A stretch of DNA of 64,000 bases from Terriglobia bacterium (lineage in GTDB: Bacteria; Acidobacteriota; Terriglobia; JAIQFV01). The DNA lies in contig JAQUPQ010000015.1 in NCBI GenBank assembly GCA_028716525.1, positions 1,237-65,236 of the forward strand, in the 5' to 3' direction. Made by a program: the position numbers and the translations under genes. This document shows positions 34,693 through 58,733 of this stretch, piece after piece (positions within the stretch are counted from its first letter, which is position 1; every line of letters starts with the position of its first letter). Under the pieces are notes generated by a model that made no database searches, was not told the DNA's origin, and saw only the letters and a list, made by a program, of their open reading frames with translations.

Positions 34693-35628
34693 TTGATGAA
34701 AGACGAATTGGAAGAAATCCGAAAAGCCATTCTTGCCGGAGAAGCTGAGGGGAATGTTCGCCGCACGCCTACCGGCTCCACTCCCCTGCCTTCCAAAGAA
34801 ATTCTCGGCGTCATCCTGGAGGCGCTCGAGGCCCTGATTTATCCCGGCTACTTTGGAGAATATTCCACTCATCCGGGTGATAGAAGCGAACGCGCGGGCC
34901 GTCTCGTCGAGGCGATTTTTGAAAAACTGCACGAGCAGGTGTACTTAAGCTTCCGGCATTTTTGCGAGAGCCCGAGCTCACCGTGCCCTCACTGCCAGGA
35001 AGCGGCGAAAACCAACACGCTGGATTTTTTGAGGAAGATTCCGGCGCTGCGGGGAATGTTGCGCGCGGATGTTGAAGCCGCCTTGGATGGCGACCCGGCC
35101 GCCAAGAGCACCGACGAAATCATTTTCAGCTACCCCGGCATGTACGCCGTCACCGTCTACCGGCTGGCGCATGAGCTGGAGCTTCAGCGGGTGCCCATCA
35201 TTCCGCGTATTCTGACCGAAATCGCCCACTCCCGAACCGGAATCGACATCCACCCCGGCGCCCGCATCGGACGACGCTTCTTCATCGATCACGGCACGGG
35301 CGTGGTCATCGGCGAAACGACGATCATCGGCGATCGCGTCCGCCTCTACCAGGGCGTGACACTCGGCGCGGTTAATTTTCCCAGAGATACCCAGGGACGC
35401 CTCATCCGCGGTACCAAACGACATCCCACGGTAGAAGACGATTGCATCATCTACGCTAATGCCACCGTCCTGGGTGGTGAAACCGTGGTGGGGCACGGCT
35501 CCATCATCGGATCCAACGTTCGCTTGATGGAAAGCGTTCCACCCGGTTCGAAGGTCATGGCCGAGCCGGCCCGCCATACCATCACCACGCGACGGACTAC
35601 GCCGAATGCACCTTCCAAGAAACGCTGA
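34693..35628 (+). CDS. cysE: Serine O-acetyltransferase (long form with N-terminal helical extension)
   Basis: Left-handed beta-helix hexapeptide repeats: IDIHPGARIGRRFFIDHGTGVVIGETTIIGDRVRLYQGVTLG. Confidence 0.8.
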   Translation: MMKDELEEIRKAILAGEAEGNVRRTPTGSTPLPSKEILGVILEALEALIYPGYFGEYSTHPGDRSERAGRLVEAIFEKLHEQVYLSFRHFCESPSSPCPHCQEAAKTNTLDFLRKIPALRGMLRADVEAALDGDPAAKSTDEIIFSYPGMYAVTVYRLAHELELQRVPIIPRILTEIAHSRTGIDIHPGARIGRRFFIDHGTGVVIGETTIIGDRVRLYQGVTLGAVNFPRDTQGRLIRGTKRHPTVEDDCIIYANATVLGGETVVGHGSIIGSNVRLMESVPPGSKVMAEPARHTITTRRTTPNAPSKKR

Positions 35629-35671
35629 GTATCATAGGTGCCGGGTGTCGGGTGTCAGGGGTATGAGAAGA

Positions 35672-35934
35672 GCAGTCAGCCGTCAGCTTTCAGCCGTCAG
35701 CTTTCAGCTACAAGCCATAAGCCTAAAGCAAACAGGAATTAGCCGGAAGCCCCAAGCTTTAAGCCCTAAGCGTTCAATGCGGATCCGAAAACAAGAATAT
35801 CTTTTGGACGAGACTTCATCGATAAGCCATTCTTCTCGACCGATGACAGGTTTTTGAATATTGAGTTTCTTGTTTGCTTACAGCTTAAGGCTTGTAGCTG
35901 AAAGCTGACGGCTGAAAGCTGACAGCTGACGGCT
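35672..35934. repeat. Heptad-periodic repeat array forming an about 40-bp imperfect inverted repeat around a 170-bp spacer
   Basis: 35674-35771 consists of 14 consecutive heptamers NNN(C/A)AGC (cgtcagc tttcagc cgtcagc tttcagc tacaagc cataagc ...). 35889-35934 carries the reverse-complement heptamers (gctgaaa gctgacg gctgaaa gctgaca gctgacg). Left arm 35681-35716 is the exact reverse complement of 35889-35924. Confidence 0.8.
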
Positions 35935-36298
35935 GATACGGATGTTCCGCAGAATCGAGATCGGTGAACGCCGTCAGCGCGCCCAAAGCTTCATTGAAAA
36001 GTACCGGCAGGCCCACAGCGTCTTTAAAATCTTGATAGAAATCATTGATGTGTTCCAGCATGTCGGCAAGTGCAGGAATTTCCACGGAGTCGTCGCTTAA
36101 AAATTTCTGGAACCCACGGTCCAAGAGTCGGAAGATTTTCCCTTTCCGCACCAATCCCGCAGACCTGAAAATCTCAACACGCCCGGCGTTGGCCCGGAAA
36201 AGAATGGCGCAGCCTTGGCGTTCGGCTCTGTACCAGCCCGCCGGGTCTGGCGACGATATCTCAAAGCCAAAAGCTTTAAGGTTTTGAATCGGATCCAT
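35885..36298 (-). CDS. Hypothetical protein (C-terminal about 15 aa encoded by the heptad repeat arm)
   Basis: 137-aa ORF with no recognised motif. Its last codons (…SAVSFQPSAFSYKP) are a translation of the inverted-repeat arm, so the true stop or length is uncertain. Confidence 0.35.
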   Translation of the reverse strand: MDPIQNLKAFGFEISSPDPAGWYRAERQGCAILFRANAGRVEIFRSAGLVRKGKIFRLLDRGFQKFLSDDSVEIPALADMLEHINDFYQDFKDAVGLPVLFNEALGALTAFTDLDSAEHPYQPSAVSFQPSAFSYKP

Positions 36299-36755
36299 AG
36301 TCGGTCGATCCTGTCTTGAAGACGCCTCTTCCAGCCGCCGTCAAGTTCTCGCATGCAATATAAGTTTTCAAGATACCACAAGAGAACAACCAACGCCACC
36401 CTCGGCGATCCTGATTGCACTGAGCCTGAAAATTTTGAATCGGAACCACCATGTCTTCCTTATACATCTAACTCTCTCCACAAAGACCTGTGAATTCAGA
36501 CCGTTTTTATGCGACAATTACACCGGAGGCTTGAAGGCGGTTCGCAGCAAAGGATCGCTGAATTGGATTCTTTTTGGGGGGCTTGACCGCAGGAAAAGTT
36601 TCGGCTTCTTTTTTGCCATCATAAATGGTATTTAGCTTCGTCTTTTTGTCTTATTCGCACTTCAACGCCCTTCCTGCCCTCAGTGCCCCAAGCCATCCCG
36701 GAATGAACGGCGAACGCATCCGCCAGCACCCCTCCGCTCCTCATTTGAGGACATC

Positions 36756-38390
36756 ATGCCCAAGCGGTTGGTTCAGAAGCTCATCCTCGCCTTAACCATC
36801 CTGGTGGTGGTTGTGGAAGGCGTGGCGGGTCTGATCAATATGCGCACCCAGGAGCGGCAACTGCTGAACGCCATGATTCTGGGCGCCGATCAGCTCTCCA
36901 AGGGCATCGCCAGCGCCACTTGGCACGCCATGTTGGCGGACCGTCGCGAAGCCGCCTACGAAGTGATGCAGACCATCGCCTTGAAGCAGGGCATCAGCCG
37001 CATCCGAATGTTCAATCACGAAGGTCGCGTCATGTTCTCGACCGCCCCGACCGAACAGGGCCAGGTGGACAAGACCACGGAAGTGTGCTCGGCCTGCCAT
37101 ATTCCGGGGCAGCCCAAGCTGCATGTCGATATTCCCTCCCGGTCGCGCATTCTGGTCGATCCCAGCGGACGGCGCCGGCTGGCCATGTTCACACCCATTT
37201 ACAACGAACCTTCCTGCAGTCAGGCAGTGTGTCATGCCCATCCGGAGTCGAGGCGCGTTTTAGGCGTGTTGGATGTGGCCTTGAACCTCGACACCGTGGA
37301 CCGCGAAGTGGCCGGTATCAAGTGGCGCGTATTGCTGGTCACCGGTGTTCAGATTCTCCTGATGGGATCGTTCATTGTGTTGTTCGCGCGGCGATTTGTC
37401 GAAGCCCCCATCCGCAAATTAATTGAGGGCACACGCGCGGTGAGCGACATGAAGCTGGACCAGCCCATCACCATCGATTCCAGTGAAGAACTGGGCGAGC
37501 TGGCCCGTTCCTTCAACGTAATGCGGGATCGGTTGCGACAGGCCATCGAGGAAATCAATCAATTCACACAAAGCCTCGAAACCAAAGTCGAGGAACGCAC
37601 CGAACAACTGAAAACGGCCCATGAACGCTTGATGAAAAGTGATCGGCTGGCGTCGCTCGGACAGCTGGCCGCCAGCGTCGCCCACGAAATCAACAACCCC
37701 ATCTCGGGAGTCTTGAATCTGGCGATGCTGATGCAGCGGATCCTCAAAGACGACGGTGTCCCACCCGACCGGCTCAACGATTTTCGCAAGTATCTCTCGC
37801 AGGTCATCACCGAAACTTCCCGGGTCGGACGAATCGTGTCGGACCTGCTGGCGTTCTCCCGCCGTTCCAAACCTCAACACACGAACGCCGATCTAAACAA
37901 GATCGTAAAGACCACATTATCGCTGGTGGATCACAAACTGAAGCTGAACAATGTGGCGGTCTCAGCCCATTTCGAGGAGCAGTTGCCCCCGGTGTCCTGT
38001 GACGCTTCGCAAATCCAGCAGGTCGTCATGAACCTTATCTTGAATGGCGCCGAGGCTACCCAGCCCCGCGGCTCGGGCCGAATCGCGGTGACCACGCAGT
38101 CCGATCCCAAGAACCACGTGGTGGCCCTCACCGTCAGCGATAATGGCGAGGGAATTCGCCCGGAGCATCTTTCGAAGGTCTTCGACCCATTTTTCACCAC
38201 CAAGGAGGAAGGCAAAGGAGTCGGCCTGGGTTTGGCCGTGGTTTATGGAATCGTGGAATCCCATGGCGGCGACATCGAAGTGAAGAGCACCTTGGGAGAA
38301 GGGACCTCGTTTCGTGTCACTCTGCCGCTGAGCCCGGCAGAAAAAGCGCCGGTGGCGCCGGCGGAGGCGGGAGCCGCCTCGAGGCGGTGA
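36756..38390 (+). CDS. Sensor histidine kinase with periplasmic domain carrying CxxCH / Cx4CH putative heme-c binding motifs
   Basis: TM1 (aa 8-28), about 160-aa periplasmic loop containing CSACH (aa 111-115) and CSQAVCH (aa 154-160), TM2, HAMP-like linker, H-box [13 protein letters not shown], HATPase_c N/G1/G2 boxes ([26 protein letters not shown]). Confidence 0.85.
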
Positions 38391-38978
38391 GTGAGCGTGA
38401 ACCGGATTTATCTGGCGTCGATGGGACACTTGGACGCAGACATTCTTGAAGATCTGGAAGAAGCCTTGACGATGCACTTTGGCTTTGAAACACGCCGACA
38501 CCCTCCGATCGCCGAACCGGAGCATGCCTATGATCCGCAACGACGCCAGTTTAGCGCCGTGGCTTTTCTGCAGCAGGCCGTGGAACATTGTCCCCCCGAG
38601 GCAGTCAAGATGTTGACGATCACAGAACGGGATTTGTTCATCCCGATGCTGAGTTTTGTTTATGGACAAGCTCAACTCGGCGGGAAAGTCGCGGTCGTAT
38701 CACTGGCCCAATTGCGGCAGGAATTTTACGGCTTTCCCTCGGACGGCGATCTCTTGCGTGAACGCGCCTTGAAAGAAATGTCGCATGAGATGGGCCACAC
38801 CTTCGGATTGATTCATTGTCCGGAACGGCTTTGTATCATGTCGTTGTCAACCAATATCCGGCACATTGATTTAAAGGGAAGCGAATTTTGCGGCGGTTGC
38901 CGCGCCGTGCTGCGGGAAAACACTGCGGTCACTCGAGCCGGCGGTTCTGAAGTTTTAGCGTGGGAGGAACGATTATGA
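38391..38978 (+). CDS. Archaemetzincin-family zinc metallopeptidase (peptidase M54-like)
   Basis: Complete archaemetzincin signature HExxHxxGx3Cx4CxMx16CxxC: SHEMGHTFGLIHCPERLCIMS...SEFCGGC. Start/stop fused with the flanking kinase and regulator genes. Confidence 0.8.
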   Translation: MSVNRIYLASMGHLDADILEDLEEALTMHFGFETRRHPPIAEPEHAYDPQRRQFSAVAFLQQAVEHCPPEAVKMLTITERDLFIPMLSFVYGQAQLGGKVAVVSLAQLRQEFYGFPSDGDLLRERALKEMSHEMGHTFGLIHCPERLCIMSLSTNIRHIDLKGSEFCGGCRAVLRENTAVTRAGGSEVLAWEERL

Positions 38979-40351
38979 AATCAGCATGGGAAATCCTGGT
39001 GGTGGACGATGAGGAGATTATGCGGGAATCTTTGGCCGCCTGGTTGCGCGAAGACGGCTACGAAGTCGAGACCGCGTGTTCCGGCCGCGAAGCGCTCGAC
39101 AAGGCCCGCGCCAAGGAATACGCCATCTATTTTGTCGATTTAAAAATGCCGGGCGGCATGGATGGCATTGAAACCATGATGGAAATCCGCCGGCTGCACG
39201 CCGAGGCCTCCATCATTATTATTACGGCCTTTGCCACCGTCGACACCGCCATCACCGCCATGAAGGAAGGCGCCCAGGAATATATCGTCAAGCCGTGCAA
39301 TCCGGCGGAAATCTCGATGCTGGTCAACCGCATCATCAAGGTGAAAAACCTGCAGCGCGAGAATGCCATTTTGCGCAAGAAATTGTCGCGCCAATACAGT
39401 TTTCACGACATCATCAGCAAAAACCCGAAGATGCTGGAAATCTTCGACCTCATCAAGGAAATTGCCAGTTTGCGCAGCACGGTGCTGATTCATGGAGGCA
39501 GCGGAACCGGCAAGGAGCTCATCGCCCGCGCCATTCACAATTCAGGAAATCGCGCCGACAAGCCGTTCATTGGCGTTTCCTGCGCTGCTCTGGCCGAGAC
39601 CTTGCTGGAATCGGAGCTCTTTGGTCACGAGAAGGGATCGTTCACAGGCGCGGATCAACGCAAGAAGGGGAAGTTTGAACTGGCGGATGGCGGCACGATC
39701 TTCCTGGACGAAATCGGCGACATCTCGCCTAAATTGCAGTTGGACCTGCTGCGGGTGCTGCAGGAACGCTCCTTTTATCGGGTGGGCGGGTCTGAAGAAG
39801 TCCAGGTCGATGTGCGGGTCATCGCGGCTTCCCATGTGGATTTGCGGCAGGCCGTCCAGGAGGGAAAATTCCGCGACGACCTCTATTATCGCCTGAATGT
39901 CATCACTATTTATATCCCGCCTCTCAGCGAACGCCGTGAAGACATTCCGCTGTTGGCGCGTCACTTCATCGAACGCCTCTCCCACGAACTGGCTAAAGAG
40001 GTCGTGGATCTTTCGGAAAATGCTTTGAAATTATTGCTGGAATACGACTGGCCCGGAAACGTTCGGGAGCTTGAAAACGCCATCGAGCGCGCCATCGTCA
40101 CCTGTCGCAGCAAAATTCTCACGGAAGAGGATTTCAATTTTCTGCAGCGCAGCATCGAAGACAAGAAAGGCTGGACCGTCCCAACCCACCTTTCCCTTGA
40201 CGAGCTGGAACGCCAGGTCATTACCGCCACGCTTCAACGCACCCAAGGCAACATCAAAGAAGCGGCGGCGGTGCTCGACATTGACCGCTCCACCTTGTAC
40301 GAGCGCATCAAGAGATACGGAATCCAACGCGAACGGCTGGTCGAAAAATAA
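38975..40351 (+). CDS. Sigma-54-dependent Fis-family response regulator (NtrC class)
   Basis: REC domain (VVDDEE...D...K), AAA+ sigma54-activation domain with Walker A GGSGTGKE, the GAFTGA-equivalent motif (EKGSFTGA) and ESELFGHE, C-terminal Fis-type HTH. Confidence 0.9.
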   Translation: MKSAWEILVVDDEEIMRESLAAWLREDGYEVETACSGREALDKARAKEYAIYFVDLKMPGGMDGIETMMEIRRLHAEASIIIITAFATVDTAITAMKEGAQEYIVKPCNPAEISMLVNRIIKVKNLQRENAILRKKLSRQYSFHDIISKNPKMLEIFDLIKEIASLRSTVLIHGGSGTGKELIARAIHNSGNRADKPFIGVSCAALAETLLESELFGHEKGSFTGADQRKKGKFELADGGTIFLDEIGDISPKLQLDLLRVLQERSFYRVGGSEEVQVDVRVIAASHVDLRQAVQEGKFRDDLYYRLNVITIYIPPLSERREDIPLLARHFIERLSHELAKEVVDLSENALKLLLEYDWPGNVRELENAIERAIVTCRSKILTEEDFNFLQRSIEDKKGWTVPTHLSLDELERQVITATLQRTQGNIKEAAAVLDIDRSTLYERIKRYGIQRERLVEK

Positions 40352-40375
40352 TCTTTCGGGATTCGCTGTGCGCGG

Positions 40376-41218
40376 CTAGGGTCGAAGGAACAACGCATCA
40401 CACACCAGTTGCCAATCAGCTTTCGGGTGCGTTGCCCCCAAATCGCGCACCGGGACGCCGCCGTCGGCCAAACTGACGCCGACACCCTCCACCGCCAAGG
40501 CGCTTTGAAGCCGATCCAGCTCCCTCAAAAACCAGGGTCGAAGTTCGTTCCCATGCAACAAGGATCGAAGGTTGAAGCCGGCTTCCGGCTTCACTTTGAG
40601 GAACCAGCCTTGCTCCGGGCCGCCGGCGGCTACCACTTCGCCGGAAATCGGAGCAAGAACTCGAATGGCCACTCCGGATTTTTTCATGAACCAGCCGATC
40701 CCGTTTACCTTCAGCTTGGCGCCCACCGGAGGCAGGTCGAGGACCTCGGGATCGGGCATCATCCGGGCGCCCAAATCGTCCAAACCCACATGCACGGTTC
40801 CATCATTCTCAGGTTTCACCCAGGTGTGTCCGCGATGATAAAACCGGTCCAAAGGCACTTCCAACCCAAAAACATCTTCAGTCGCTTGAAAATTTTCTTC
40901 AACCCGAATATCGGAAGGAAGAGCCTTCGCCGTCAACCGTGCGTGCTCAGCGCAATCCCAGCATTCGAACTGGTTTTCACAGACACGCTGTTTGAACTCC
41001 CCCGTCCAAACGTGACGGCACGTGCGGTCCTGCGGCGATAATTCCTGGAAATCGGATTTCCAACGGATCGTTTCCTGCAGGTCGGAGCGAAAGGCTTTCA
41101 CGGCTCGCCACACCGCCAGGCCGACGGTCACGCCGATCACCATCAACACGGAATAAAAGACTCCCAGAAAAATCAAGAACCCAGGGCTCCAATGAAAACC
41201 ATAAATTCCGGGGAACAT
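40376..41218 (-). CDS. Membrane-anchored glycine-cleavage-H-like (lipoyl-carrier fold) domain protein with 4-Cys cluster
   Basis: N-terminal TM helix, Cx13Cx5Cx2C segment, then a GcvH-like domain: HTWVKPENDGTVHVGLDD...LPPVGAKLKVNGIGWFMKKSGVAIRVLAPISGEVV...GWFLKVKP aligns with GcvH HEW...DGT.TVGIT...LPEVG...ESVKA...APVSGEIV...GWIFKIK. Last gene of the redox operon. Confidence 0.6.
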   Translation of the reverse strand: MFPGIYGFHWSPGFLIFLGVFYSVLMVIGVTVGLAVWRAVKAFRSDLQETIRWKSDFQELSPQDRTCRHVWTGEFKQRVCENQFECWDCAEHARLTAKALPSDIRVEENFQATEDVFGLEVPLDRFYHRGHTWVKPENDGTVHVGLDDLGARMMPDPEVLDLPPVGAKLKVNGIGWFMKKSGVAIRVLAPISGEVVAAGGPEQGWFLKVKPEAGFNLRSLLHGNELRPWFLRELDRLQSALAVEGVGVSLADGGVPVRDLGATHPKADWQLVCDALFLRP

Positions 41219-41230
41219 GCTCTTCCTCCA

Positions 41231-42463
41231 TCACGGCCGCGCCAATTCCCTTTCCTGCGGGAAAAGATTGAGATAGCGGAATGAAAAAGAATAAACCAAC
41301 ACACCGTAAGCCACGATCGCCAGGAACGCCGCCGTCTCCTGCCAGCTGGGCAGATACGACAAGAACCGATCAAAGGGCAACGTCGGCAACGCCAAGGTTT
41401 GAATGGTCAGCACAAAACGGTTCAAGGCGACACCGCCGCAGACCAGCACGGCGGCCGTCAACAACCAGCCACGGTGCGCCCGAAGACGGCGGCTCAACAA
41501 AATCACAGCGGGGAGCAAGCCGAACAGCACAATCTCTGCAAACAGGATCCAGGTTCCGAACGGTTTCCACTGATAATACTGGTAGGCCGGAAAGCCCCGC
41601 GCCGGCGAAGTACCGTTGATCCATACCAGGGTATCCACGGTTTTTAACAAGGTATAAACGATCAACAGGATTCCGGAAATCTGGCCCAGCTCGCTGAACA
41701 CTTCGGGCCGGACGAGTCTTTTGCGGGAAATTTTTGACACCAGCCAGGTTGTCAACAGAATGAAGCACGGCCCGGCGGCCAGCGCCGACAGGATGAAGAG
41801 GAAAAATGTCGACGGCCAAATCGCCAGGCCCTCGCGAAATGCAAAGGGCCGCCCTCGCAGGACACCATACAGCCCTCCCAACGATCCCTGGTGGAAAAAC
41901 GAGAGAATCGTGCCGACACCCGCCAACACCACCATAAGTTTGTGCAATTCAAACTCAAAGACCAGGAACGACGGCACCTGCCGCAGTTTGCGGTTCTTCA
42001 AAATGATGGGAAGATATTCGATGAAGAGCACCGCCAGATAGCAACTGATGCAAAACGTCACTTCCGTGAGCATGGAATGCACATTGGGATGCCAAAAAGT
42101 AAACCAGGCCCGCAGGGGCTGTCCCACGTCAACCATCAACACGGCCACCGCGCCGCTGTAGCAGACGAAACCCAGCACTACGGCGCTGTTAATTACGGCT
42201 TTCAACTCTTCTTTCTTCAAAATATAGACCAGGAATCCGGTGAAGAAAGCGCCCGCACCCAACGCAATCACCGTGAGATCCAGAAAAATCCACAGCCCGA
42301 AGGCAAAACGATTGTCCATGTGCGTTTGATTCAAGCCCCGCGAAAAACACAGCCATGCCGCGTAGAGCCCCAAAGCCAACAGGGCCGTCCAAGGAAGAAT
42401 CCACATCAAAAATTTCGAAAAGGACGAGCGGGTGACGCCGCGAACCATGTATCCCCTATCCAT
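41231..42463 (-). CDS. NrfD/PsrC-type polysulfide-reductase-family integral membrane (quinone-interacting) subunit
   Basis: About 410 aa, 9-10 predicted TM helices with the NrfD-family pattern. Positioned downstream of the Fe-S subunit, as in psr/qrc/act operons. Confidence 0.75.
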   Translation of the reverse strand: MDRGYMVRGVTRSSFSKFLMWILPWTALLALGLYAAWLCFSRGLNQTHMDNRFAFGLWIFLDLTVIALGAGAFFTGFLVYILKKEELKAVINSAVVLGFVCYSGAVAVLMVDVGQPLRAWFTFWHPNVHSMLTEVTFCISCYLAVLFIEYLPIILKNRKLRQVPSFLVFEFELHKLMVVLAGVGTILSFFHQGSLGGLYGVLRGRPFAFREGLAIWPSTFFLFILSALAAGPCFILLTTWLVSKISRKRLVRPEVFSELGQISGILLIVYTLLKTVDTLVWINGTSPARGFPAYQYYQWKPFGTWILFAEIVLFGLLPAVILLSRRLRAHRGWLLTAAVLVCGGVALNRFVLTIQTLALPTLPFDRFLSYLPSWQETAAFLAIVAYGVLVYSFSFRYLNLFPQERELARP

Positions 42464-43229
42464 GAGTTTGGTCCTTCCGTGCCATCTGCACCTCATCTTC
42501 TGAAACTTTCCTGACCCAGGATTGGCGCGTCAGGTAATAAATTTTCGGTTCGGTTCCAAGTTGTTCGAGCATGCGAAAGGCTTCGGGACGCCGCGCCAGA
42601 CGGGCCACTTCACTGGTTTCGTCATTCAAATCACCGAAGACGATGGCGCGCGCCGGGCATGCTTCGACACAGGCGGGAACATATTCGCCGGGTTGAAGTG
42701 TGTCGCGGCCTGCGGCGGCCGCTCTCTCCCGTGCCGCATGCAATCGCCCGTGACAGAAATTGCATTTTTCCACGACACCCCGCATGCGCGTGGAAACATC
42801 CGGATTGAGAGTTTTTTCCATCCCCGGGGGCCACACGGCGTCCCACCAATTGAAATAGCGGGCGTGATACGGGCACGCGGCCATGCAATAACGGCATCCC
42901 AGGCAGCGTTCCGGCATCTGGCCGACCACGCCGGTCGCCGGGTCGACATCCACGGCTTGTTGCGGACAAACCGAAACGCACGGTGTCTCGCGGCCGCATT
43001 GCTGGCAGGGCACAGGTACAAACACAGAACGGTTGTTCGGAAACTTCAATCCATTGTTGAAACGATACACGCGCAGCCAGGTGATCCCGGTGCGATCGGT
43101 GGCCTCACGGTGCGCCGGAGGAACATTGTTTTCCACCGCACAGGCCATCATGCAGGCCCCGCATCCGTTGCAGCGATCCAGATCGATTACCATGCCGTAT
43201 CGAGATTTTTTTTGTGTTGGCGTGGTCAT
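42456..43229 (-). CDS. 4Fe-4S ferredoxin-type iron-sulfur subunit (PsrB/QrcC/HybA-like, four clusters)
   Basis: Four Cys clusters: CNGCGACMMAC, CQQCGRETPCVSVCP, CLGCRYCMAACP, C...CVEACP. Start set at MTTPTQ. Confidence 0.85.
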   Translation of the reverse strand: MTTPTQKKSRYGMVIDLDRCNGCGACMMACAVENNVPPAHREATDRTGITWLRVYRFNNGLKFPNNRSVFVPVPCQQCGRETPCVSVCPQQAVDVDPATGVVGQMPERCLGCRYCMAACPYHARYFNWWDAVWPPGMEKTLNPDVSTRMRGVVEKCNFCHGRLHAARERAAAAGRDTLQPGEYVPACVEACPARAIVFGDLNDETSEVARLARRPEAFRMLEQLGTEPKIYYLTRQSWVRKVSEDEVQMARKDQTHG

Positions 43230-43234
43230 GGCTG

Positions 43235-45481
43235 TCAGACTCCGCTCATCTTTGCCCGCGTCACCCTCCACACGCCATCGTCGTCGAGGTTGCACAGACA
43301 CAGAATATTCCGGCCGTCCACTTCCTGAGATTCGTGGAATTCTTTAAGGTTGGGCCCGACGATGACTTGAATTACTTCCGGCATCACAGCGTCGTCGAAA
43401 TGAACCCGCGCCACTTTGGATCCGCAGCGCGTTTGAATCAGAGCCGGGCCGCCATCCGTCAGACCCCAACGCCGTCCCGTTTCTACATTGACTCGAGCTT
43501 CGCCTCCAAGGTGGCGCAATCCCGATTCCTGATAAATCTTCGTCATGACGGGTGAAAGGCCATTCTGGCCCACGGCGCCACGCCAACCTTCCGGCATCAA
43601 GACCAGCGGAAATTCAGTTGCCGGGTCTCGCTGTATTTCCAAGCGTCCATGGCCCACGGCCTCCAGTCTTTCCGCCGCGTTGGCGGCCTTCCCCAGCAAG
43701 GAGAAACGAGAAGCAATCGGCGATGTGGAAGACGGTGGGTCATCGCGCCACGACGCTCCATCGCAAAACATGGCCCACATCGAATCCGCTGATGCGACGT
43801 CTTTCACCCGTGTCTCGGACTCGTTACGATAGCTGAAGATCGTTCCGCGGCGATCACGATGGAACTGCTCCACTCGCCGTTTGAACAAATCCTTCGGAGA
43901 GACGTCTTGAAATTCGGGGGCCAGGTGAACTCCCGCAGCCACAGCGACACGCCGAATAAAATCAAACGGCTCTTGAACTCCACCCGGTGGGACCAGCAGC
44001 GGCAGGGACAGACTGTAGGAAGTCGTCGGAGAATCCAATGGAGTCAAGACTTCTTCCCAAGACTCCAAATAGACCGGTGAAGGAACAATGAACTGCGCAT
44101 TCCGGCTTATTCCCAACAGGTACGGTGAAAAACTGACGACCACAGGATTGTCTCGCACCAACTTCTTTTCCAAGAGGGTCCAGGGGATGGCATTCCCAGA
44201 AGGCAAGGCATCGACGAATAAAACCCTGATGGAATGGTCGGGAATATCGCGAAGAGAACTTGCGGGTTTCAAATTCTTCGATGGCTCTTTTAACCATTTC
44301 GGCAGCTCGCGACGAGGGAGAAATCCGCCCCTGCGACCTACATTTCCCAACACGAAATTCAGCGCCGCAATAGCCGTTTCTTCCTCCGGACCCAACGGTC
44401 CAGCTCCCGGATCGCCTCCTCCCAAAACGATGGAGGGACCGCGTTGGACCAATTCCCGGGCCAGACTGACGATTTTATCTTCAGATACTCCCGTAATGGC
44501 AGCGGTCGTTCGGGGAGAAAACTTTTCCGTGAGCTCACGAAATGATCCCTGGGCTCCCTGCTCAAGATCGATCGCCTGCCGAGAAAGCGCCGCCATGTCG
44601 ATCAACTTTTCTTTAATCAATATGCCCGCCAGACCCAGAGCCAAAGCCGCTTCCGTGCCCGGGCGCAGAGGCAGCCACTCATCGGCCAGGAGAGCCGTGC
44701 GCGATTGGTGCGTCTCAGCCTGAATGATTTTGAGATGACTTTCAGAGGAATCTTGCAGCCCTTCCGACATTTTCCAGAGCCTTGCAGGATTCCCCCATCC
44801 GTCCAGCAGCGGCGTTCCAAAACTCAGAATGGTTCGTGTGTTTTCAAGATCAATTCCCAGGGCGCCATAGGGTTTCTCCGCGGCTGATTCCATGGCATGC
44901 AATGTGGCCCCGGAATCAGAAACCGGGTTCAGATAAACGCCGTTGGGAAAACCCGACAAAAAATTCCGATACATCAATGAGGTGACACGCCCCGGCCGTT
45001 CGTCAAGGATCGCCGCCAGATCCCCGGAACCGGACGCCCGCGTGGTGGCCAACGCCTCGGACACAGTCAAGACAATATCCTCCGGCGTACACGGCTGAAA
45101 CGATGCAGATATTCCGGAGGCGCGCCGGAGTGGCTGTGTGACACGTTGGGGATGGTAACGGAGATGATGCCCTCCGAGGCCCACGGCACACAGCGCACCC
45201 CGGCTCCCGGATTGCGGTGCGATACCCGCCAAACTAATGGGCTGTCCGCCCACGCATCGCGCCCGCACTCCACACCCTGCCGGACACAAGGTGCAGTTGG
45301 AATAACGAAACTGGATTTCGCCGCGTGGAGGAGAGGTCACCCAGCGGCCGTTTTGCGTCCAGATGGACACATCATCGAGGAGCTTCCAGGGAATGGGCGT
45401 GAACCACAACCCCAGGGCCGAACCCCCGGCCAGCCTTAACAGATCTCGACGCGAAATCTTTTCCCTCATGGCGACCCTCAA
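43235..45481 (-). CDS. TAT-exported molybdopterin-oxidoreductase (MopB/CISM family) catalytic-type subunit
   Basis: Twin-arginine signal SRRDLLRLAGGSALG. N-terminal 4Fe-4S motif CTLCPAGCGVRARC...C. About 745 aa with MopB-like domain order. Confidence 0.8.
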   Translation of the reverse strand: MRVAMREKISRRDLLRLAGGSALGLWFTPIPWKLLDDVSIWTQNGRWVTSPPRGEIQFRYSNCTLCPAGCGVRARCVGGQPISLAGIAPQSGSRGALCAVGLGGHHLRYHPQRVTQPLRRASGISASFQPCTPEDIVLTVSEALATTRASGSGDLAAILDERPGRVTSLMYRNFLSGFPNGVYLNPVSDSGATLHAMESAAEKPYGALGIDLENTRTILSFGTPLLDGWGNPARLWKMSEGLQDSSESHLKIIQAETHQSRTALLADEWLPLRPGTEAALALGLAGILIKEKLIDMAALSRQAIDLEQGAQGSFRELTEKFSPRTTAAITGVSEDKIVSLARELVQRGPSIVLGGGDPGAGPLGPEEETAIAALNFVLGNVGRRGGFLPRRELPKWLKEPSKNLKPASSLRDIPDHSIRVLFVDALPSGNAIPWTLLEKKLVRDNPVVVSFSPYLLGISRNAQFIVPSPVYLESWEEVLTPLDSPTTSYSLSLPLLVPPGGVQEPFDFIRRVAVAAGVHLAPEFQDVSPKDLFKRRVEQFHRDRRGTIFSYRNESETRVKDVASADSMWAMFCDGASWRDDPPSSTSPIASRFSLLGKAANAAERLEAVGHGRLEIQRDPATEFPLVLMPEGWRGAVGQNGLSPVMTKIYQESGLRHLGGEARVNVETGRRWGLTDGGPALIQTRCGSKVARVHFDDAVMPEVIQVIVGPNLKEFHESQEVDGRNILCLCNLDDDGVWRVTRAKMSGV

Positions 45482-46063
45482 CTACTTGTGACAATCCAGA
45501 CAGGCATCGGAACGCCCGCGGGCGGCATGACACCGTGAGCACTCCGTCATCTTCATGCCTCGCGAGAAGCCGGCAATGTTCTGCCCCCAGATATCGCGGC
45601 TGTACCCGCTGAGGCGATTGCGTTGGAATTCCCGCAACGACTCACTCGACCCGTGCGATCCATGGCATTCATCGCATTTCAGCCGGGCTTGCCGGACATG
45701 AAAGAGATGTGAGAAATAGGTGTTATCGGGTTGCCGGGAATACACGCGCCACGGGATTTCTTCGCCCGGGACGATGTATTTTTCGACGAGAAGTTTTTCG
45801 TCCGCAGAAGCCGTCAATGGCGCGGCATGGCACTCCGCGCACTTGGAGACGCTTGGAATTCCGGCAAACGAGCCGTCGCTGCGGAAGGCGTGGCAATCGT
45901 CACATTTCAAGCCGACTTTTTCCGAGGTGTGAACGCGATGGCTGAATTGCAGTGGTTGATCGATCCGCTCATAAAGCATCCGGGGAAATCCCATCCATCC
46001 AATCCCCAGTGCGGCCAATAATCCAGCCGCAAAAAATAAGAGGCCTCGATTCATTACCACCAT
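45482..46063 (-). CDS. Membrane-anchored pentaheme c-type cytochrome (NapC/NrfH/ActA-like)
   Basis: N-terminal TM helix, then five CxxCH motifs (CDDCH, CAECH, CDECH, CSRCH, CLDCH) in 193 aa. Confidence 0.85.
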   Translation of the reverse strand: MVVMNRGLLFFAAGLLAALGIGWMGFPRMLYERIDQPLQFSHRVHTSEKVGLKCDDCHAFRSDGSFAGIPSVSKCAECHAAPLTASADEKLLVEKYIVPGEEIPWRVYSRQPDNTYFSHLFHVRQARLKCDECHGSHGSSESLREFQRNRLSGYSRDIWGQNIAGFSRGMKMTECSRCHAARGRSDACLDCHK

Positions 46064-47010
46064 TTCCTCCAGTTGGCATAAGGCGAAAAGAATTGATTGA
46101 TAAACGACAGGCGGGCTTCATAGTCCAAACGATTGAAGAAACCGGGAACAAACAAACCGCCGTCGGTCATCAGCTTTTCATCCTGAGGAGCGTCCGGCGC
46201 ATGGTTCTGTATAAATTCGGTGACCCGGTTGAATTCCTGCTCCATCCAGGTCTTCGCTTCCGCCCCCGGCATCAATCCGGAGCGCGCGCCGCGTTCTCCC
46301 GCTCCGTTGGGAGGGTCCATGGTTTCGAACAACCATCCGGCTCCATAGGGTTCGGACGTCAAACGCTCGGGACTGCTCCGCAAACTCACGTTGGTGTTCG
46401 TCACGACGACAAGATTTGGAAACGCCATCTGCAGCTCCACATCCTTCAGCGTCAAAACCACGGTGGGACGATCCATCGCCCGTCGGGCCAGAAACCGGAC
46501 TTGATCCACCCGTCCCAACGCTCTCGCTAAAAACGCATCGACACCGATGTGGCACATGCCGTCATCACCCACGTCCAGCCACATGTGATTGGCGGAGTAA
46601 AACAGCTCCGGGGGAACGGGAATGCCTTCCACACGGTCATCTTCGGTGGAGGAGTGTGAACCCGACCAACCCGCCGGCGCCGTCCCCGGCATGCGGGGAT
46701 GCGCCAGGGCATAAAACAAATCGCAGAAGCGGTGAGAATCGCTGCTGCAGCGCGAGGCCAAAGACTCACTGTAAGGGATGAATTTCGTGACGGGCGCCGC
46801 CGAACAAAACTGCACCAGGGATTCTTCCAGGAACGGACACTTCTCTTGAGCCGGTCCCTCGGCATGCATTCGGGCCACCGGACAATCCAGATATGCCGGC
46901 GTGGAGCATTTTTCGCCGGCCGCGTTTCCCGGCCTTTCCACAATCATCTTGCGGAACGTCGCCGTCTGGCAGTTCTTCACGTAGGTTTCCTTGAGGAATG
47001 GACACTTCAT
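46054..47010 (-). CDS. Cys-rich protein with GcvH-like (lipoyl-carrier fold) domain; first gene of the redox operon
   Basis: N-terminal 100 aa carry 10 Cys, including two repeats KCPFL(K/E)E..V..C. Central HMWLDVGDDGMCHIGVD...LTLKDVELQMAFPNLVVVTN...SEPYGAGWLFETMD matches the GcvH fold (HEW..DG..VGIT...ESVKAASD..APVSGEIV..SEPYAGGWIFKIK). Confidence 0.6.
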   Translation of the reverse strand: MKCPFLKETYVKNCQTATFRKMIVERPGNAAGEKCSTPAYLDCPVARMHAEGPAQEKCPFLEESLVQFCSAAPVTKFIPYSESLASRCSSDSHRFCDLFYALAHPRMPGTAPAGWSGSHSSTEDDRVEGIPVPPELFYSANHMWLDVGDDGMCHIGVDAFLARALGRVDQVRFLARRAMDRPTVVLTLKDVELQMAFPNLVVVTNTNVSLRSSPERLTSEPYGAGWLFETMDPPNGAGERGARSGLMPGAEAKTWMEQEFNRVTEFIQNHAPDAPQDEKLMTDGGLFVPGFFNRLDYEARLSFINQFFSPYANWRKWW

Positions 47011-47240
47011 GTGGCACTCGTTTCTGCTATCTCACCCTCTGCCCGCCGAGAGAGTCTCCATGTCGAGTCGAAATCGAGTTTGAGTGTTTTCATCTCTGCC
47101 TCTCGACAACTTCCTCGGCGTTTTCCAAAAGGGATGGTGGCAAGAAGGCGTGAGATGGAAATTTCTCCTCGCCACCACCCTTCGCCGACGAACCACCCGC
47201 TGATTCACGTGTTTGGGGTTCGCGGCACACTGGTGCGGCC

Positions 47241-47627
47241 CTAATTCACCGACCGCACAATGTGAGGTTCTTCATCGTCCGAGACGCAATCGCCGTGCAC
47301 ATGCGGTAAGGTCGGCGCTACAGACTCGCCCCCATCCGCCATCGTGAATCCCAATTCCGGTATGAGGAAAGCATGATCGTCTTCCTTTACACTCTTGCGC
47401 TTCCGGATCATGACCATCTCGGAGTAAACCACTCGTCCCACCACGATCACGCAAGCCAAGGTCACCAATCCCAATGCAACATTGGTCAGGTTTAACCAGA
47501 ACGTGGCAGGATCAGTTGCGTTGAACACGACGCGCCTCCTTTGAAGACTTCCCGGTCTTCGCTGAACGTTGTTCACAAGGACTGGAGTGCAATCGGATGA
47601 CCGATCCGTGTTCAGCTTGTGGGACAA
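47241..47627 (-). CDS. Hypothetical small membrane protein
   Basis: ORF with one clear TM helix (NVALGLVTLACVIVVGRVV) and no recognisable motifs. Coding status uncertain. Confidence 0.25.
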   Translation of the reverse strand: MSHKLNTDRSSDCTPVLVNNVQRRPGSLQRRRVVFNATDPATFWLNLTNVALGLVTLACVIVVGRVVYSEMVMIRKRKSVKEDDHAFLIPELGFTMADGGESVAPTLPHVHGDCVSDDEEPHIVRSVN

Positions 47628-47834
47628 GCCAACATCGCATTGAAAAATCTGGAAATTAAATTGTTGGGGTGAAACGCGGCATCAGCGGACGATCACAACG
47701 GATGTGGGGTTTTCCAACACAGAATTCTAAAATTCCGGCACGACAAAGATGCGGATCTGACGTGAGATAAATCTTCTTGCAGGGGGTCGGGCGGAGGAAA
47801 GGAAGAGGAGATCCCCAGGTTTCAAAAGGGCGGT

Positions 47835-48797
47835 TCAGCTTCCCAGCTTCTTCAGCTCGCCATCAATAATCTTTTGGAATACCGGGAAAGGTTGAGCGCC
47901 GGCCACGGGACGGCCATCAATGAAGAACAGCGGTGTACCCGTGAGGTTGAGCGCCTGACCTTCCTCGATGTCGGCTTGAATTTGCGGCAAGGGCTTCTTC
48001 TGGTCGTAACAGCTTTCAAACTCGGGGATATTCAGCCCCGATTGCGTGGCGATTTCCACCGACTTAGCGCGAATCGTTTGTTCGGTGATCGTAGACTGAT
48101 TTTCAAAAAAACCGTTGTAGAAATTCCAAAAGGCGTCCTTCTTCTGCTCAAACGCGCACAAGCCGGCCACGGCAGCGCTCTCCGCCCACTTATGGATGGG
48201 CAGGGGATAATTCTTGTAAATCAGTTTGATCTTGTCGCCGTAGCTTTTGAGTACTTCTTTTTCCAGAGTTTGATAGGCCTGGCCACACATGGGGCATTCG
48301 AAATCGGAAAATTCCACAATGGTGACGGGAGCATTTTTGTTGCCGAGCATGGGCTCATTATCGAGCTTCATTTTCTTGAGATTCTCTTTGAACGGATCGA
48401 CCGTGAGATCCAGAATCTGCCCCAGGAAGGCCAAGCGATTATCCTTGCTGACCAGGACCTGAATGCGCTCGATATTGGTCCCGTCGCTGTATTTAACCGT
48501 CACGGTATCAAAACCGCTGAGCTTGGAGGAAGTACGGTCCACCACCCACATTTCCAGCCCGGCTGCCACGGGCTGGGCATTTAGAATGTTGTTGACGAGG
48601 CGCTCATTGAACTGCTCCGTGGTCATCGTGGAAGTCGGCTTTTCATCCGCGCGAGCTACGGATTTCTTGGCCGCAGCCGGCGGGGATGTTTTCTTGGTCG
48701 TCTGGGCCAAGGCCGCGGGAAAATTGAGGGCCAACAATCCCACCAGGACAAACAAAATCTCGGTAAAGAAGAAACAATTCAGGCTTCTCGGCTTCAT
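47835..48797 (-). CDS. Periplasmic DsbA-family thiol:disulfide oxidoreductase (thioredoxin fold)
   Basis: Signal peptide, Ala/Lys/Pro-rich linker, thioredoxin-like domain with active-site FECPMCGQ and the conserved cis-Pro region. Confidence 0.8.
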   Translation of the reverse strand: MKPRSLNCFFFTEILFVLVGLLALNFPAALAQTTKKTSPPAAAKKSVARADEKPTSTMTTEQFNERLVNNILNAQPVAAGLEMWVVDRTSSKLSGFDTVTVKYSDGTNIERIQVLVSKDNRLAFLGQILDLTVDPFKENLKKMKLDNEPMLGNKNAPVTIVEFSDFECPMCGQAYQTLEKEVLKSYGDKIKLIYKNYPLPIHKWAESAAVAGLCAFEQKKDAFWNFYNGFFENQSTITEQTIRAKSVEIATQSGLNIPEFESCYDQKKPLPQIQADIEEGQALNLTGTPLFFIDGRPVAGAQPFPVFQKIIDGELKKLGS

Positions 48798-58337: not shown

Positions 58338-58733
58338 TCAAAAAATCTTTCGGATTTTGGCCACTCCGATCGCGGTTCCCTTGGCGGCATGCGCGGCCGA
58401 TTTTCCAACACCAATCCCCACGTTCTTTCCAAATCCCCCGACCCCTGCACCAAACGCCATCGTTCCCTTAATCGGCTCGCCTTGCACGGTGTCCGACGCC
58501 AGCTTCACGCTGCCGTCCCCCAAATCGGACCCGGCTTTTCCCGCATGCGTGGTGAGCGTTTCTCCGGACTTCTTGAATTCAGTAACGGAAGAATCGGACT
58601 TCTGATGATGATTGGCCTTCTTGCTGCTGGAGACGGCGTATGAATCGTTGTCTGAAGCCGTTGTCGATTGCGCCAACAAAAAGGCAGGACACAAAAGAAG
58701 AAGCAAAAAGATCATGTATCGAGCTGGTCGCAT
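58338..58733 (-). CDS. Small secreted Gly/Ala/Lys-rich protein (unknown function)
   Basis: Signal peptide MRPARYMIFLLLLLCPAFLLAQS, then low-complexity GxGxG-rich C-terminus. Compositionally plausible but unsupported by motifs. Confidence 0.4.
   Translation of the reverse strand: MRPARYMIFLLLLLCPAFLLAQSTTASDNDSYAVSSSKKANHHQKSDSSVTEFKKSGETLTTHAGKAGSDLGDGSVKLASDTVQGEPIKGTMAFGAGVGGFGKNVGIGVGKSAAHAAKGTAIGVAKIRKIF

Follow-up and report, generated by a model that had tools for sequence, protein, structure and literature searches.

What is an archaemetzincin (AMZ; peptidase family M54) doing inside a bacterial two-component operon? The question is raised by positions 36756-40351 of a 64,000-nucleotide window of DNA from a Terriglobia bacterium (contig JAQUPQ010000015.1; the window is the whole stretch analysed, and coordinates are positions in it unless another locus is named), where three tightly packed plus-strand open reading frames (ORFs) encode a sensor kinase, an AMZ and a sigma54 response regulator. 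Archaemetzincins are found from archaea to humans and their structures have been solved; the family has no known physiological role, and no physiological substrate or genomic partner is known for its characterised members (PMC3427221, PMC4681839). The reading favoured here, with moderate confidence, is that the three genes form a conserved regulatory cassette for the Qrc-type respiratory module encoded beside them. The cassette occurs in hundreds of soil and sediment bacteria and constitutes the first testable bacterial context for archaemetzincins, in a neighbourhood that recurs across phyla and supplies candidate partners for the peptidase. Its genes are as follows.

36756..38390, plus strand: sensor histidine kinase of 544 amino acids, with a first transmembrane helix, a periplasmic single Cache domain (sCache, residues ~28-190), a second transmembrane helix, HAMP, HisKA and HATPase_c
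38397..38978, plus strand: archaemetzincin (peptidase M54), predicted to be cytoplasmic, 193 amino acids, assigned from Pfam, NCBIfam and PDB entry 2x7m, with the start as in NCBI protein P0121
38975..40351, plus strand: NtrC-class sigma54-dependent response regulator (receiver domain, AAA+ domain with GSFTGA loop, HTH_8), assigned from Pfam and sequence

The kinase gene ends with a TGA codon at 38388-38390, which is followed by two in-frame GTG codons, one abutting the stop codon (38391) and one at 38397. The latter is the AMZ start used by NCBI for P0121, a 99% identical protein (MNRIYL...) from an 'Acidobacteriia bacterium' metagenome-assembled genome (MAG), and it agrees with the N-termini of the orthologues, which have the consensus MxxIYL. 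The regulator most likely starts at the ATG at 38975, after GGGAGGAA, in an ATGA overlap with the AMZ stop codon, and the convergent neighbouring gene ends at 40376, 24 nucleotides beyond the regulator gene. All that an earlier, sequence-only reading of 36756-40351 had claimed of the letters themselves holds: the Cys/His motifs of the sensor, the contact between kinase stop and AMZ start, the AMZ signature, the overlap of AMZ and regulator genes and the convergent neighbour.

Judged by its sequence, the middle gene encodes a bona fide archaemetzincin with intact catalytic residues. The defining element is the following.

38784..38900, plus strand: catalytic and structural zinc signature HExxHxxGxxHCx4CxMx16CxxC, read from the translation and invariant at every signature residue in 30 orthologues

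In the window protein the signature reads HEMGHTFGLIHCPERLCIMx16CGGC, with HEMGHTFGLIH at residues 132-142, and both the second zinc site and the Met-turn are present (C143, C148, M150, C167 and C170), with the same x16 spacing as in Methanopyrus kandleri AmzA; of 131 related genes, 129 keep the signature in full. The earlier assignment to Peptidase_M54 was borne out by the Pfam model (PF07998; 85 bits, cut-off 24.4), and the protein also passes the NCBIfam archmetzin model (NF033823; 161.4 bits, cut-off 145) and matches M. kandleri AmzA (PDB 2x7m) with E=1.6e-29, while the non-proteolytic myxobacterial model NF033824 gives only 96.5 bits against a cut-off of 250. With the characterised archaemetzincins (MEROPS M54: M. 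kandleri AmzA, 2x7m; Archaeoglobus fulgidus, 3zvs and 4axq; AMZ-tk; human AMZ1/AMZ2) it shares the two-zinc signature, scores above the family cut-offs and a single-domain organization of ~190 residues, predicted to be cytoplasmic as no leader or transmembrane segment is found. It differs from them in being bacterial and in the place of its gene, inside a two-component operon that is itself linked to a Qrc-type complex. Literature searches pairing archaemetzincin with histidine kinase, or peptidase M54 with response regulator, returned nothing relevant.

The order kinase–AMZ–regulator extends well beyond the window. Three AMZ relatives that were looked up lie in the same order with 4-nucleotide overlaps, and a scan with an AMZ alignment, covering one genome per GTDB species, returned at least 565 genomes with close AMZ relatives, among the best 80 of which, taken for analysis, 79 display it. 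The carriers belong to Terriglobia, Bryobacterales, Thermoanaerobaculia, Holophagales, Bacteroidota, Ignavibacteriota, Kryptoniota, Eisenbacteria and other groups. The single exception, a deltaproteobacterial MAG (L081), has AMZ–GcvH-like–GcvH-like–FeS–NrfD–kinase–regulator on one strand, and an acidobacterial genome (L078, 570-6350) carries a second, divergent copy, NrfD–GcvH-like–kinase–regulator–AMZ, just ahead of the canonical one; as these two arrangements illustrate, the association of AMZ, kinase, regulator and Qrc survives a reshuffled gene order. Since the 80-genome sample was selected through AMZ itself, metagenomes were sampled as well, through the sensor domain; these contain AMZ in 45 of ~62 loci with sequence visible after the kinase (~73%), and in the remaining ones the regulator follows the kinase directly, with a 4-nucleotide overlap.

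Altogether, AMZ is present in 126 and absent from 18 of 144 loci with the same kinase–regulator pair. Seven of the AMZ-less loci group as one clade in a kinase distance tree; the others are several scattered singles and one pair, and one of the singles sits deep inside an AMZ-positive clade (the tree being a crude neighbour-joining one); this scatter suggests, from sequence relationships, that AMZ has been lost repeatedly. The comparison of gene neighbourhoods proposed in the sequence-only reading therefore upholds the arrangement, in 79 of the best 80 genomes and 45 of the ~62 metagenome loci, and the fused protease gene, kept in 126 loci, is nonetheless missing from 18. Its description of a metzincin in a two-component operon as unusual fits the literature searched, in which no paper links an archaemetzincin to a kinase, but does not fit nature, where at least 565 species-level genomes harbour close AMZ relatives. 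The sensor Cys/His motifs and the gene order lie beyond chance, being kept in more than 140 independent loci. The parts are of known kinds; their combination, conserved across phyla, is apparently undescribed. The idea of AMZ as a passenger gene was discarded in view of its conserved position and catalytic residues.

The signal received by the cassette is presumably sensed by the extracytoplasmic part of the kinase, where hydrophobic helices at ~7-27 and 190-212 flank a loop of ~160 residues, with HAMP, HisKA and HATPase_c downstream. Two Cys/His motifs stand out in this loop.

37086..37100, plus strand: accessory canonical heme-c motif C111-S-A-C-H115 (CSACH), in a helical insertion between strands beta2 and beta3, read from the translation; helix 109-115 in the model
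37215..37241, plus strand: core motif C154-S-Q-A-V-C-H160-A-H162, between strands beta4 and beta5, the putative homologous heme-c attachment site, from conservation and alignment with 3b42

Among 120 sensor relatives collected with the N-terminal 225 residues of the kinase, the Cx4CH motif, in the context NEPSCSxAxCHAHP, is found in 100 of the 106 sequences that cover it, the exceptions resembling frameshifted fragments, and the canonical CxxCH in 74 of the 106, the loop being deleted in the remainder. Across all loci fetched later the corresponding counts are 144/144 for NE..Cx4CH and 118/144 (82%) for CxxCH, so that the near-universal motif of the sensor is NExxCx4CH(AH); the possibility, raised earlier, that homologues of the periplasmic domain lack the Cys/His motifs is thereby answered in favour of their retention. 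One relative (P0011) carries Cx3CH at the core site, the spacing thus being variable and the C...CH order constant.

An AlphaFold model built on the alignment (predicted local distance difference test score of 88) shows five strands and two helices, the N-terminal one long, which is the topology of a single Cache domain, here in the extracytoplasmic loop; a short helix separating strands 2 and 3 carries CxxCH, and Cx4CH is placed between strands 4 and 5. The best structural match found with Foldseek is the extracellular domain of WalK, and the second-best PDB match is 3b42_B, the c-heme sensor domain of Geobacter GSU0935 (E=5.4e-6). Searching PDB sequences with a profile of the entire N-terminal half gave HAMP and kinase matches only; it took a domain-only query and the fold search to reveal the link to heme sensors. 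In the domain-only search with P0011, the segments ...LTMVTPIYNEPACQAACHAHP...VLGVL... align with ...LSLVLPFPNEQRCQS-CH...YLGGL... of 3b42 (E=0.063), which puts NEPAC-QAACH of the relative on NEQRCQSCH, the heme-binding Cys-Cys-His of 3b42, in a shared strand–PxNE–motif–strand context. The Pfam family PF21563 matches 94 of 117 relatives at E<=0.01, P0011 scoring 29.7 bits (cut-off 27).

Like the Geobacter sulfurreducens c-type-heme sensors GSU0582 and GSU0935 (PDB 3b47 and 3b42; PF21563), earlier classed as 'PAS-like', and the sCache_heme family, the window kinase has an extracytoplasmic single Cache domain between two transmembrane helices, with a HAMP-linked output, and, like GSU0935-type sensors, a Cys...Cys-His motif at the same place, after a strand ending in PxNE. 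It differs from them in having Cx4CH (Cx3CH in one relative) instead of CxxCH, together with an additional conserved AH, in its kinase output working with a sigma54 regulator, and in the attached archaemetzincin gene. In the sCache_heme family (DUF3365/Tll0287, PF11845), described in 2026, CxxCH is 99% conserved and lies between two late beta strands (PMC12889525); an additional heme motif had been noted earlier in sensors of Geobacter (GSU0591/0599) and Anaeromyxobacter (Adeh_2011/3383) (PMC3831638). Residues W56 and M59 on the N-terminal helix are invariant in the alignment of the relatives, and H57 is nearly so. A methionine on that side of the domain is a redox-dependent distal ligand in Geobacter sensors (PMC8396549), and by analogy W56/H57/M59 may form the distal-ligand region here.

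Not all of the evidence favours heme. The window kinase scores 18.7 bits against PF21563, below the cut-off of 27, and has no match to PF11845, sCache_heme proper, even at E<=10; the position between late strands that holds a canonical CxxCH in that family is occupied by Cx4CH, a non-canonical spacing for heme c that leaves the heme assignment a prediction, and CSACH sits in a different loop. The departure from CxxCH and the Pfam results would also suit a sensor in which the Cys and His residues bind a metal (a Cys2His2 zinc site, iron or copper) or form disulfides, sensing metal or thiol redox state and lacking heme, for which C154, C159, H160 and H162 could make a tetrahedral site. We consider this unlikely, given the residue-by-residue match of the motif to the heme-attachment Cys-Cys-His of 3b42 in the same strand context, the shift to Cx3CH in P0011 under a constant C...CH order, the perfect CxxCH of the accessory motif on its helix and the multiheme cytochromes encoded next door in the same organism. 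A Cx4CH heme site, moreover, occurs in Desulfovibrio cytochrome c3. The assignment of the core site as Cx4CH, a spacing variant of the known heme–Cache sensors, with CxxCH as an optional second site, is supported by homology. Of the c-type heme sensor first proposed, what stands is a Cache fold related to the Geobacter heme sensors with conserved Cys/His motifs, but the canonical CxxCH turns out to be an accessory and is missing in ~18% of the loci. The periplasmic domain would then most likely bind c-type heme covalently, with one heme at NExxCx4CH and, in the window protein, a second at CxxCH, and would report the periplasmic redox state or a diatomic gas (NO, O2 or CO). Such a sensor would add to the newly defined heme-containing Cache domains a variant in which the motif is Cx4CH and a second heme is optional, and would link a sensor of this kind to a defined target promoter.

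From its domain composition, the kinase would relay the signal through HAMP to its catalytic core and on to the NtrC-type regulator by phosphorylation. In the regulator, Response_reg (103.8 bits), Sigma54_activat (236.5 bits), AAA_lid_14 and HTH_8 are recognized, and the GSFTGA loop characteristic of the class is present. In NCBIfam, kinase and regulator both stay below the cut-offs of all named orthologue groups, the best matches being AtoSC and ZraSR (AtoC model, 482 bits versus 714; AtoS, 252 versus 646), and orthology to AtoC, ZraR or NtrC was rejected, every equivalog model remaining under its cut-off. The pair has in common with NtrB/NtrC-type systems the regulator architecture of receiver, AAA+ and HTH_8 domains, the HisKA/HATPase kinase, palindromic enhancers upstream and a GG-N10-GC promoter, whereas the third, enzymatic gene between kinase and regulator, the sensor domain and the regulon are different. 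The WalRK operon, in which the accessory genes are yycH, yycI and yycJ, the last with a metallo-hydrolase fold, is likewise a two-component operon with accessory genes that include a zinc-hydrolase-fold protein, and WalK supplies the best structural match of the sensor, but its accessory proteins are not homologous to those found here and its regulator class and regulon differ, the likeness being one of analogy only.

The probable target of the regulator is the operon that converges on it from the minus strand, listed here in the order of transcription.

47241..47528, minus strand: small membrane protein of 95 amino acids, first gene of the operon, identified from sequence; GTG start after AAGGAGG
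46054..47010, minus strand: GcvH-like protein 1, with a Cys-rich N-terminal region and a GCV_H fold (Pfam GCV_H)
45482..46063, minus strand: QrcA-like multiheme cytochrome c (NCBIfam QrcA, 216.3 bits, passing the cut-off of 180)
43235..45481, minus strand: QrcB-like subunit of the molybdopterin family, carrying a twin-arginine leader; its true start probably lies a few codons inside (QrcB, 257 bits, below the cut-off of 440)
42456..43301, minus strand: QrcC-like 4Fe-4S subunit (QrcC, 363 bits, below the cut-off of 400; Pfam Fer4 families)
41231..42496, minus strand: QrcD-like membrane subunit of the NrfD family (QrcD, 576.8 bits, passing the cut-off of 570)
40376..41218, minus strand: GcvH-like protein 2, with an N-terminal transmembrane helix, a Cys-rich segment and a GCV_H fold (Pfam GCV_H); ends the operon and converges on the regulator gene

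The Qrc-like nature of this operon, proposed from the letters alone, is supported by the QrcA and QrcD models. Qrc genes adjoin the cassette in 66 of the 94 AMZ-positive loci with visible flanks, in convergent orientation in Acidobacteriota and divergent in Bacteroidota, and GcvH-like protein 1 is conserved beside the small ORF in the relatives. In several loci the regulated unit beside the cassette comprises the small ORF and GcvH-like protein 1 only.

As the conserved sequences upstream of the operon suggest, the regulator very probably activates it through a sigma54 promoter. Upstream regions of 22 loci were aligned on the small ORF that precedes gcvH1, and an enhancer matrix was built from their sites. 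Immediately ahead of the small ORF, 22 of 23 loci and all five independent ones have a GG-N10-G[C/T] element (for example TGGCACCCTTCTTGCA, CGGCACTTGGATTGCA and TGGTCTTCCGATTGCA). Homologous tandem palindromes with the consensus TGTCGG-N5-CCGACA (TGTYGG-N5-CCRACA) are found in every locus with a visible upstream region, at fixed distances to the GG of -81/-60 in Acidobacteriota and -128/-106 in Bacteroidota. Five metagenome loci outside the matrix set have the same promoter and enhancer sites. The counterparts in the window are the following.

47703..47719, no strand assigned: distal enhancer palindrome TGTTGGAAAACCCCACA (minus-strand reading), the best match to the position weight matrix in the 64 kb window (20.4 bits)
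47618..47634, no strand assigned: promoter-proximal enhancer palindrome TGTTGGCTTGTCCCACA (minus-strand reading), the second-best match in the window (15.8 bits)
47588..47603, minus strand: putative sigma54-type promoter CGGTCATCCGATTGCA, with GG at 47602-47601 and GC at 47590-47589, from cross-locus comparison

The window promoter shares 13 of 16 positions with the promoter at the same place in the relative L060 (TGGTCTTCCGATTGCA). It was found only through comparison of loci, because a search for the strict consensus TGGCAC-N5-TTGC with up to two mismatches missed it, giving 65 matches where 72 were expected. This failure is one of several points that weaken the case for sigma54 control: the -24 element of the window, CGGTCA, is poor by the generic sigma54 consensus; the enhancers lie at -117 and -32 from the GG, unlike those of the relatives; rpoN was not seen among the ORFs scanned, no search having been aimed at it; and the palindromes are attributed to this regulator presumptively, on their adjacency only. 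Sigma54 control of the redox operon, as first suggested, is nonetheless strongly supported by a conserved -24/-12 promoter with tandem enhancers at 47588-47719, but at another location, upstream of the small ORF and not within 47010-47240, where inspection by eye found no -24/-12 element; that region is the long spacer between the small ORF and gcvH1. The spacer itself (47011-47240) measures 230 nucleotides in the window, compared with ~5-135 nucleotides, mostly 25-45, between the phmmer matches in relatives.

The same elements also appear where AMZ is missing. In L092 (4290-9999) a palindrome, a TGGCAC-N5-CTGCT promoter and a 46-residue small ORF precede genes for an ABC ATPase, an ABC-2 permease, the kinase and the regulator, which suggests autoregulation, and in L096 (9958-10160) they drive a 45-residue ORF alone, convergent on the regulator gene. 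Because of these two AMZ-less loci, enhancer, promoter and small ORF can be said to travel with the kinase–regulator family, and on comparative grounds this speaks strongly for activation of the promoter by the regulator. This bears on the possibility that the pair controls something else, that its proximity to Qrc is conserved linkage and that the palindromes belong to another regulator, which could be argued from the ~30% of AMZ-positive loci without Qrc genes in the fetched flanks and from the sequence-based attribution of the palindromes. Palindromes, promoter and small ORF accompany the pair, however, in both the divergent operons of Bacteroidota and the convergent ones of Acidobacteriota, as well as in L092, which has an ABC transporter and the kinase–regulator genes downstream of them, and similar sites occur near the kinase gene in eight loci; mere linkage is accordingly very improbable. 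Under the favoured reading of direct control, the phosphorylated regulator would bind the palindromes at 47703-47719 and 47618-47634, the positions of which come from the comparison of loci, and its AAA+ domain would open the promoter at 47588-47603 for transcription of the small membrane protein, GcvH-like protein 1, QrcABCD and GcvH-like protein 2. The cassette would then point to a way in which bacteria abundant in the environment may turn an anaerobic respiratory module on or off.

Other occurrences of these elements were recorded. The eight matrix matches nearest the kinase gene (13.6-18.1 bits; L029, L034, L035, L062, L063, L070, L074 and L082) lie 48-270 nucleotides upstream of it in seven cases and ~3.5 kb away in L074, a hint of autoregulation in some lineages; the region preceding the kinase gene of the window yielded neither a sigma70-like promoter nor an enhancer site. 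Matches of up to 23 bits are present inside the qrcB coding sequence (window 44942-44958; L032 3594, L034 2316, L058 3601 and L142 3092) and may act as regulatory sites within the gene or simply follow from a conserved peptide. A third pattern match in the window, at 58662-58678, was dismissed, scoring only 8.5 bits with the matrix. In L032, L034, L037, L044, L051, L058, L062 and L142 the -12 element is TTTGT(C/A) or CTTGTT in place of TTGC (for example CGGCATACTGTTTGTC); these are most of the loci labelled Bacteroidota and a few labelled Ignavibacteriota, and the element may be a lineage-specific promoter variant or simply reflect shared ancestry. An Rfam search of 35500-48500 returned no matches.

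With the circuit outlined, the place of the AMZ in it can be considered. Produced in fixed proportion with kinase and regulator by way of overlapping or abutting frames, the AMZ would be an accessory and not a part of the core relay. Indeed, it is dispensable for the kinase–regulator pair in some lineages. Qrc adjacency, seen in 66 of 94 AMZ-positive loci, contrasts with its absence from all nine AMZ-less loci that could be compared (Fisher p=5e-5, on biased sampling), and the co-occurrence of AMZ appears to point to the regulated Qrc/GcvH/small-protein module at least as much as to signalling. AMZ would thus most likely act post-translationally on a partner belonging to the Qrc/GcvH version of the system, the first candidate substrate being the tail of the small protein and the second a GcvH-like protein or the regulator.

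The small protein begins with FWLNLTN (FWLNxTN in the family) and continues with one transmembrane helix, a basic stretch and a cytoplasmic tail, DDHAF...LGFTMADGGE; it is identical to the NCBI hypothetical protein P0241. A word-indexed search with it found only four relatives, and an exhaustive search ~199 clusters (at 50% identity) of small proteins of 52-160 amino acids, with no fusions; the family has no Pfam or NCBIfam model. The tail motif, DDHxF...LGxTMADGGE, occurs in every AMZ-positive locus with the ORF visible, L081 and L146 with their reshuffled gene orders among them; the two AMZ-less versions, of 45-46 amino acids (L092 and L096), lack it.

The proposal that the protease processes a signalling component is the principal competitor. 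According to it, AMZ would cut or trim either the kinase or the response regulator, whose inhibitory receiver domain might, for instance, be removed or degraded, leading to irreversible activation or to termination of the signal. The gene does lie between those of kinase and regulator in overlapping or abutting frames in 126 loci, and so would be co-expressed at regulator-like levels and not with the structural operon, and its catalytic residues are conserved. On the other hand, the 18 AMZ-less loci retain the pair with a clean 4-nucleotide overlap, scattered over the kinase tree with one nested deep, and in L081 AMZ lies beside GcvH-like genes, away from the pair. A comparison of AMZ-positive and AMZ-less loci disclosed no cleavage-related difference in kinase C-termini or regulator N-termini (MKTHWEILVVDDEEVM...), and the proposal is weakened because these ends are alike with or without AMZ; action on regulator or kinase is therefore judged rather unlikely.

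Action on the small-protein tail or on a GcvH-like protein, taken together, is possible, though somewhat short of an even prospect, and the rest of the probability falls to a non-proteolytic or other role. Three considerations hold back the preferred candidates: the position of AMZ between kinase and regulator argues for a signalling partner over a structural one; the small ORF was seen in only two AMZ-less loci; and the tail motif tracks Qrc/GcvH just as closely as it tracks AMZ, for which reason the choice of substrate is a guess. The fuller version, in which AMZ is a dedicated site-specific hydrolase of the small-protein tail or of the GcvH proteins and cleavage feeds back on the kinase or matures the Qrc/GcvH complex, is doubtful. 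If true, it would provide the first physiological substrate and pathway for a family that includes human AMZ1 and AMZ2, and a new kind of three-component sigma54 circuit.

The regulated complex also deserves comment. As in the QrcABCD menaquinone reductase of sulfate-reducing Desulfobacterota, four subunits are encoded in the same order, with the QrcA and QrcD models passed; different are the two flanking GcvH-like proteins and the small membrane protein ahead, the below-cut-off scores of QrcB and QrcC and the occurrence in Acidobacteriota, Bacteroidota, Ignavibacteriota and others. A survey from 2021 found QrcD only in Deltaproteobacteria (PMC8076601). Qrc-like operons are common in the Acidobacteriota, Bacteroidota, Ignavibacteriota, Kryptoniota and Eisenbacteria MAGs among the loci collected (L008-L170), so that a quinone reductase thought typical of sulfate-reducing Desulfobacterota is met here with GcvH-like partners in soil and sediment bacteria. 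None of the Qrc and NrfD papers searched describes lipoyl-carrier-like partners of a Qrc-type complex, GcvH being unmentioned in PMC8076601, and the paper on the D. vulgaris sigma54 regulome makes no mention of qrc. Transcription of qrcABCD under anoxia has been reported for an acidobacterial MAG (PMC10564751), in line with a switch that responds to redox state or to a gas.

A 320-residue DsbA/thioredoxin-like protein is encoded on the minus strand at 47835-48797, next to the enhancer region on its upstream side; it has no counterpart in the 87 loci searched (L001-L087) and is probably unrelated to the module. Both GcvH-like proteins presumably keep the lysine at the lipoylation position, according to a manual alignment to E. 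coli GcvH, and GcvH-like protein 1 displays, ahead of its GCV_H domain, two repeats of the cysteine pattern CPF(L)-x7-C ... C-x7-C.

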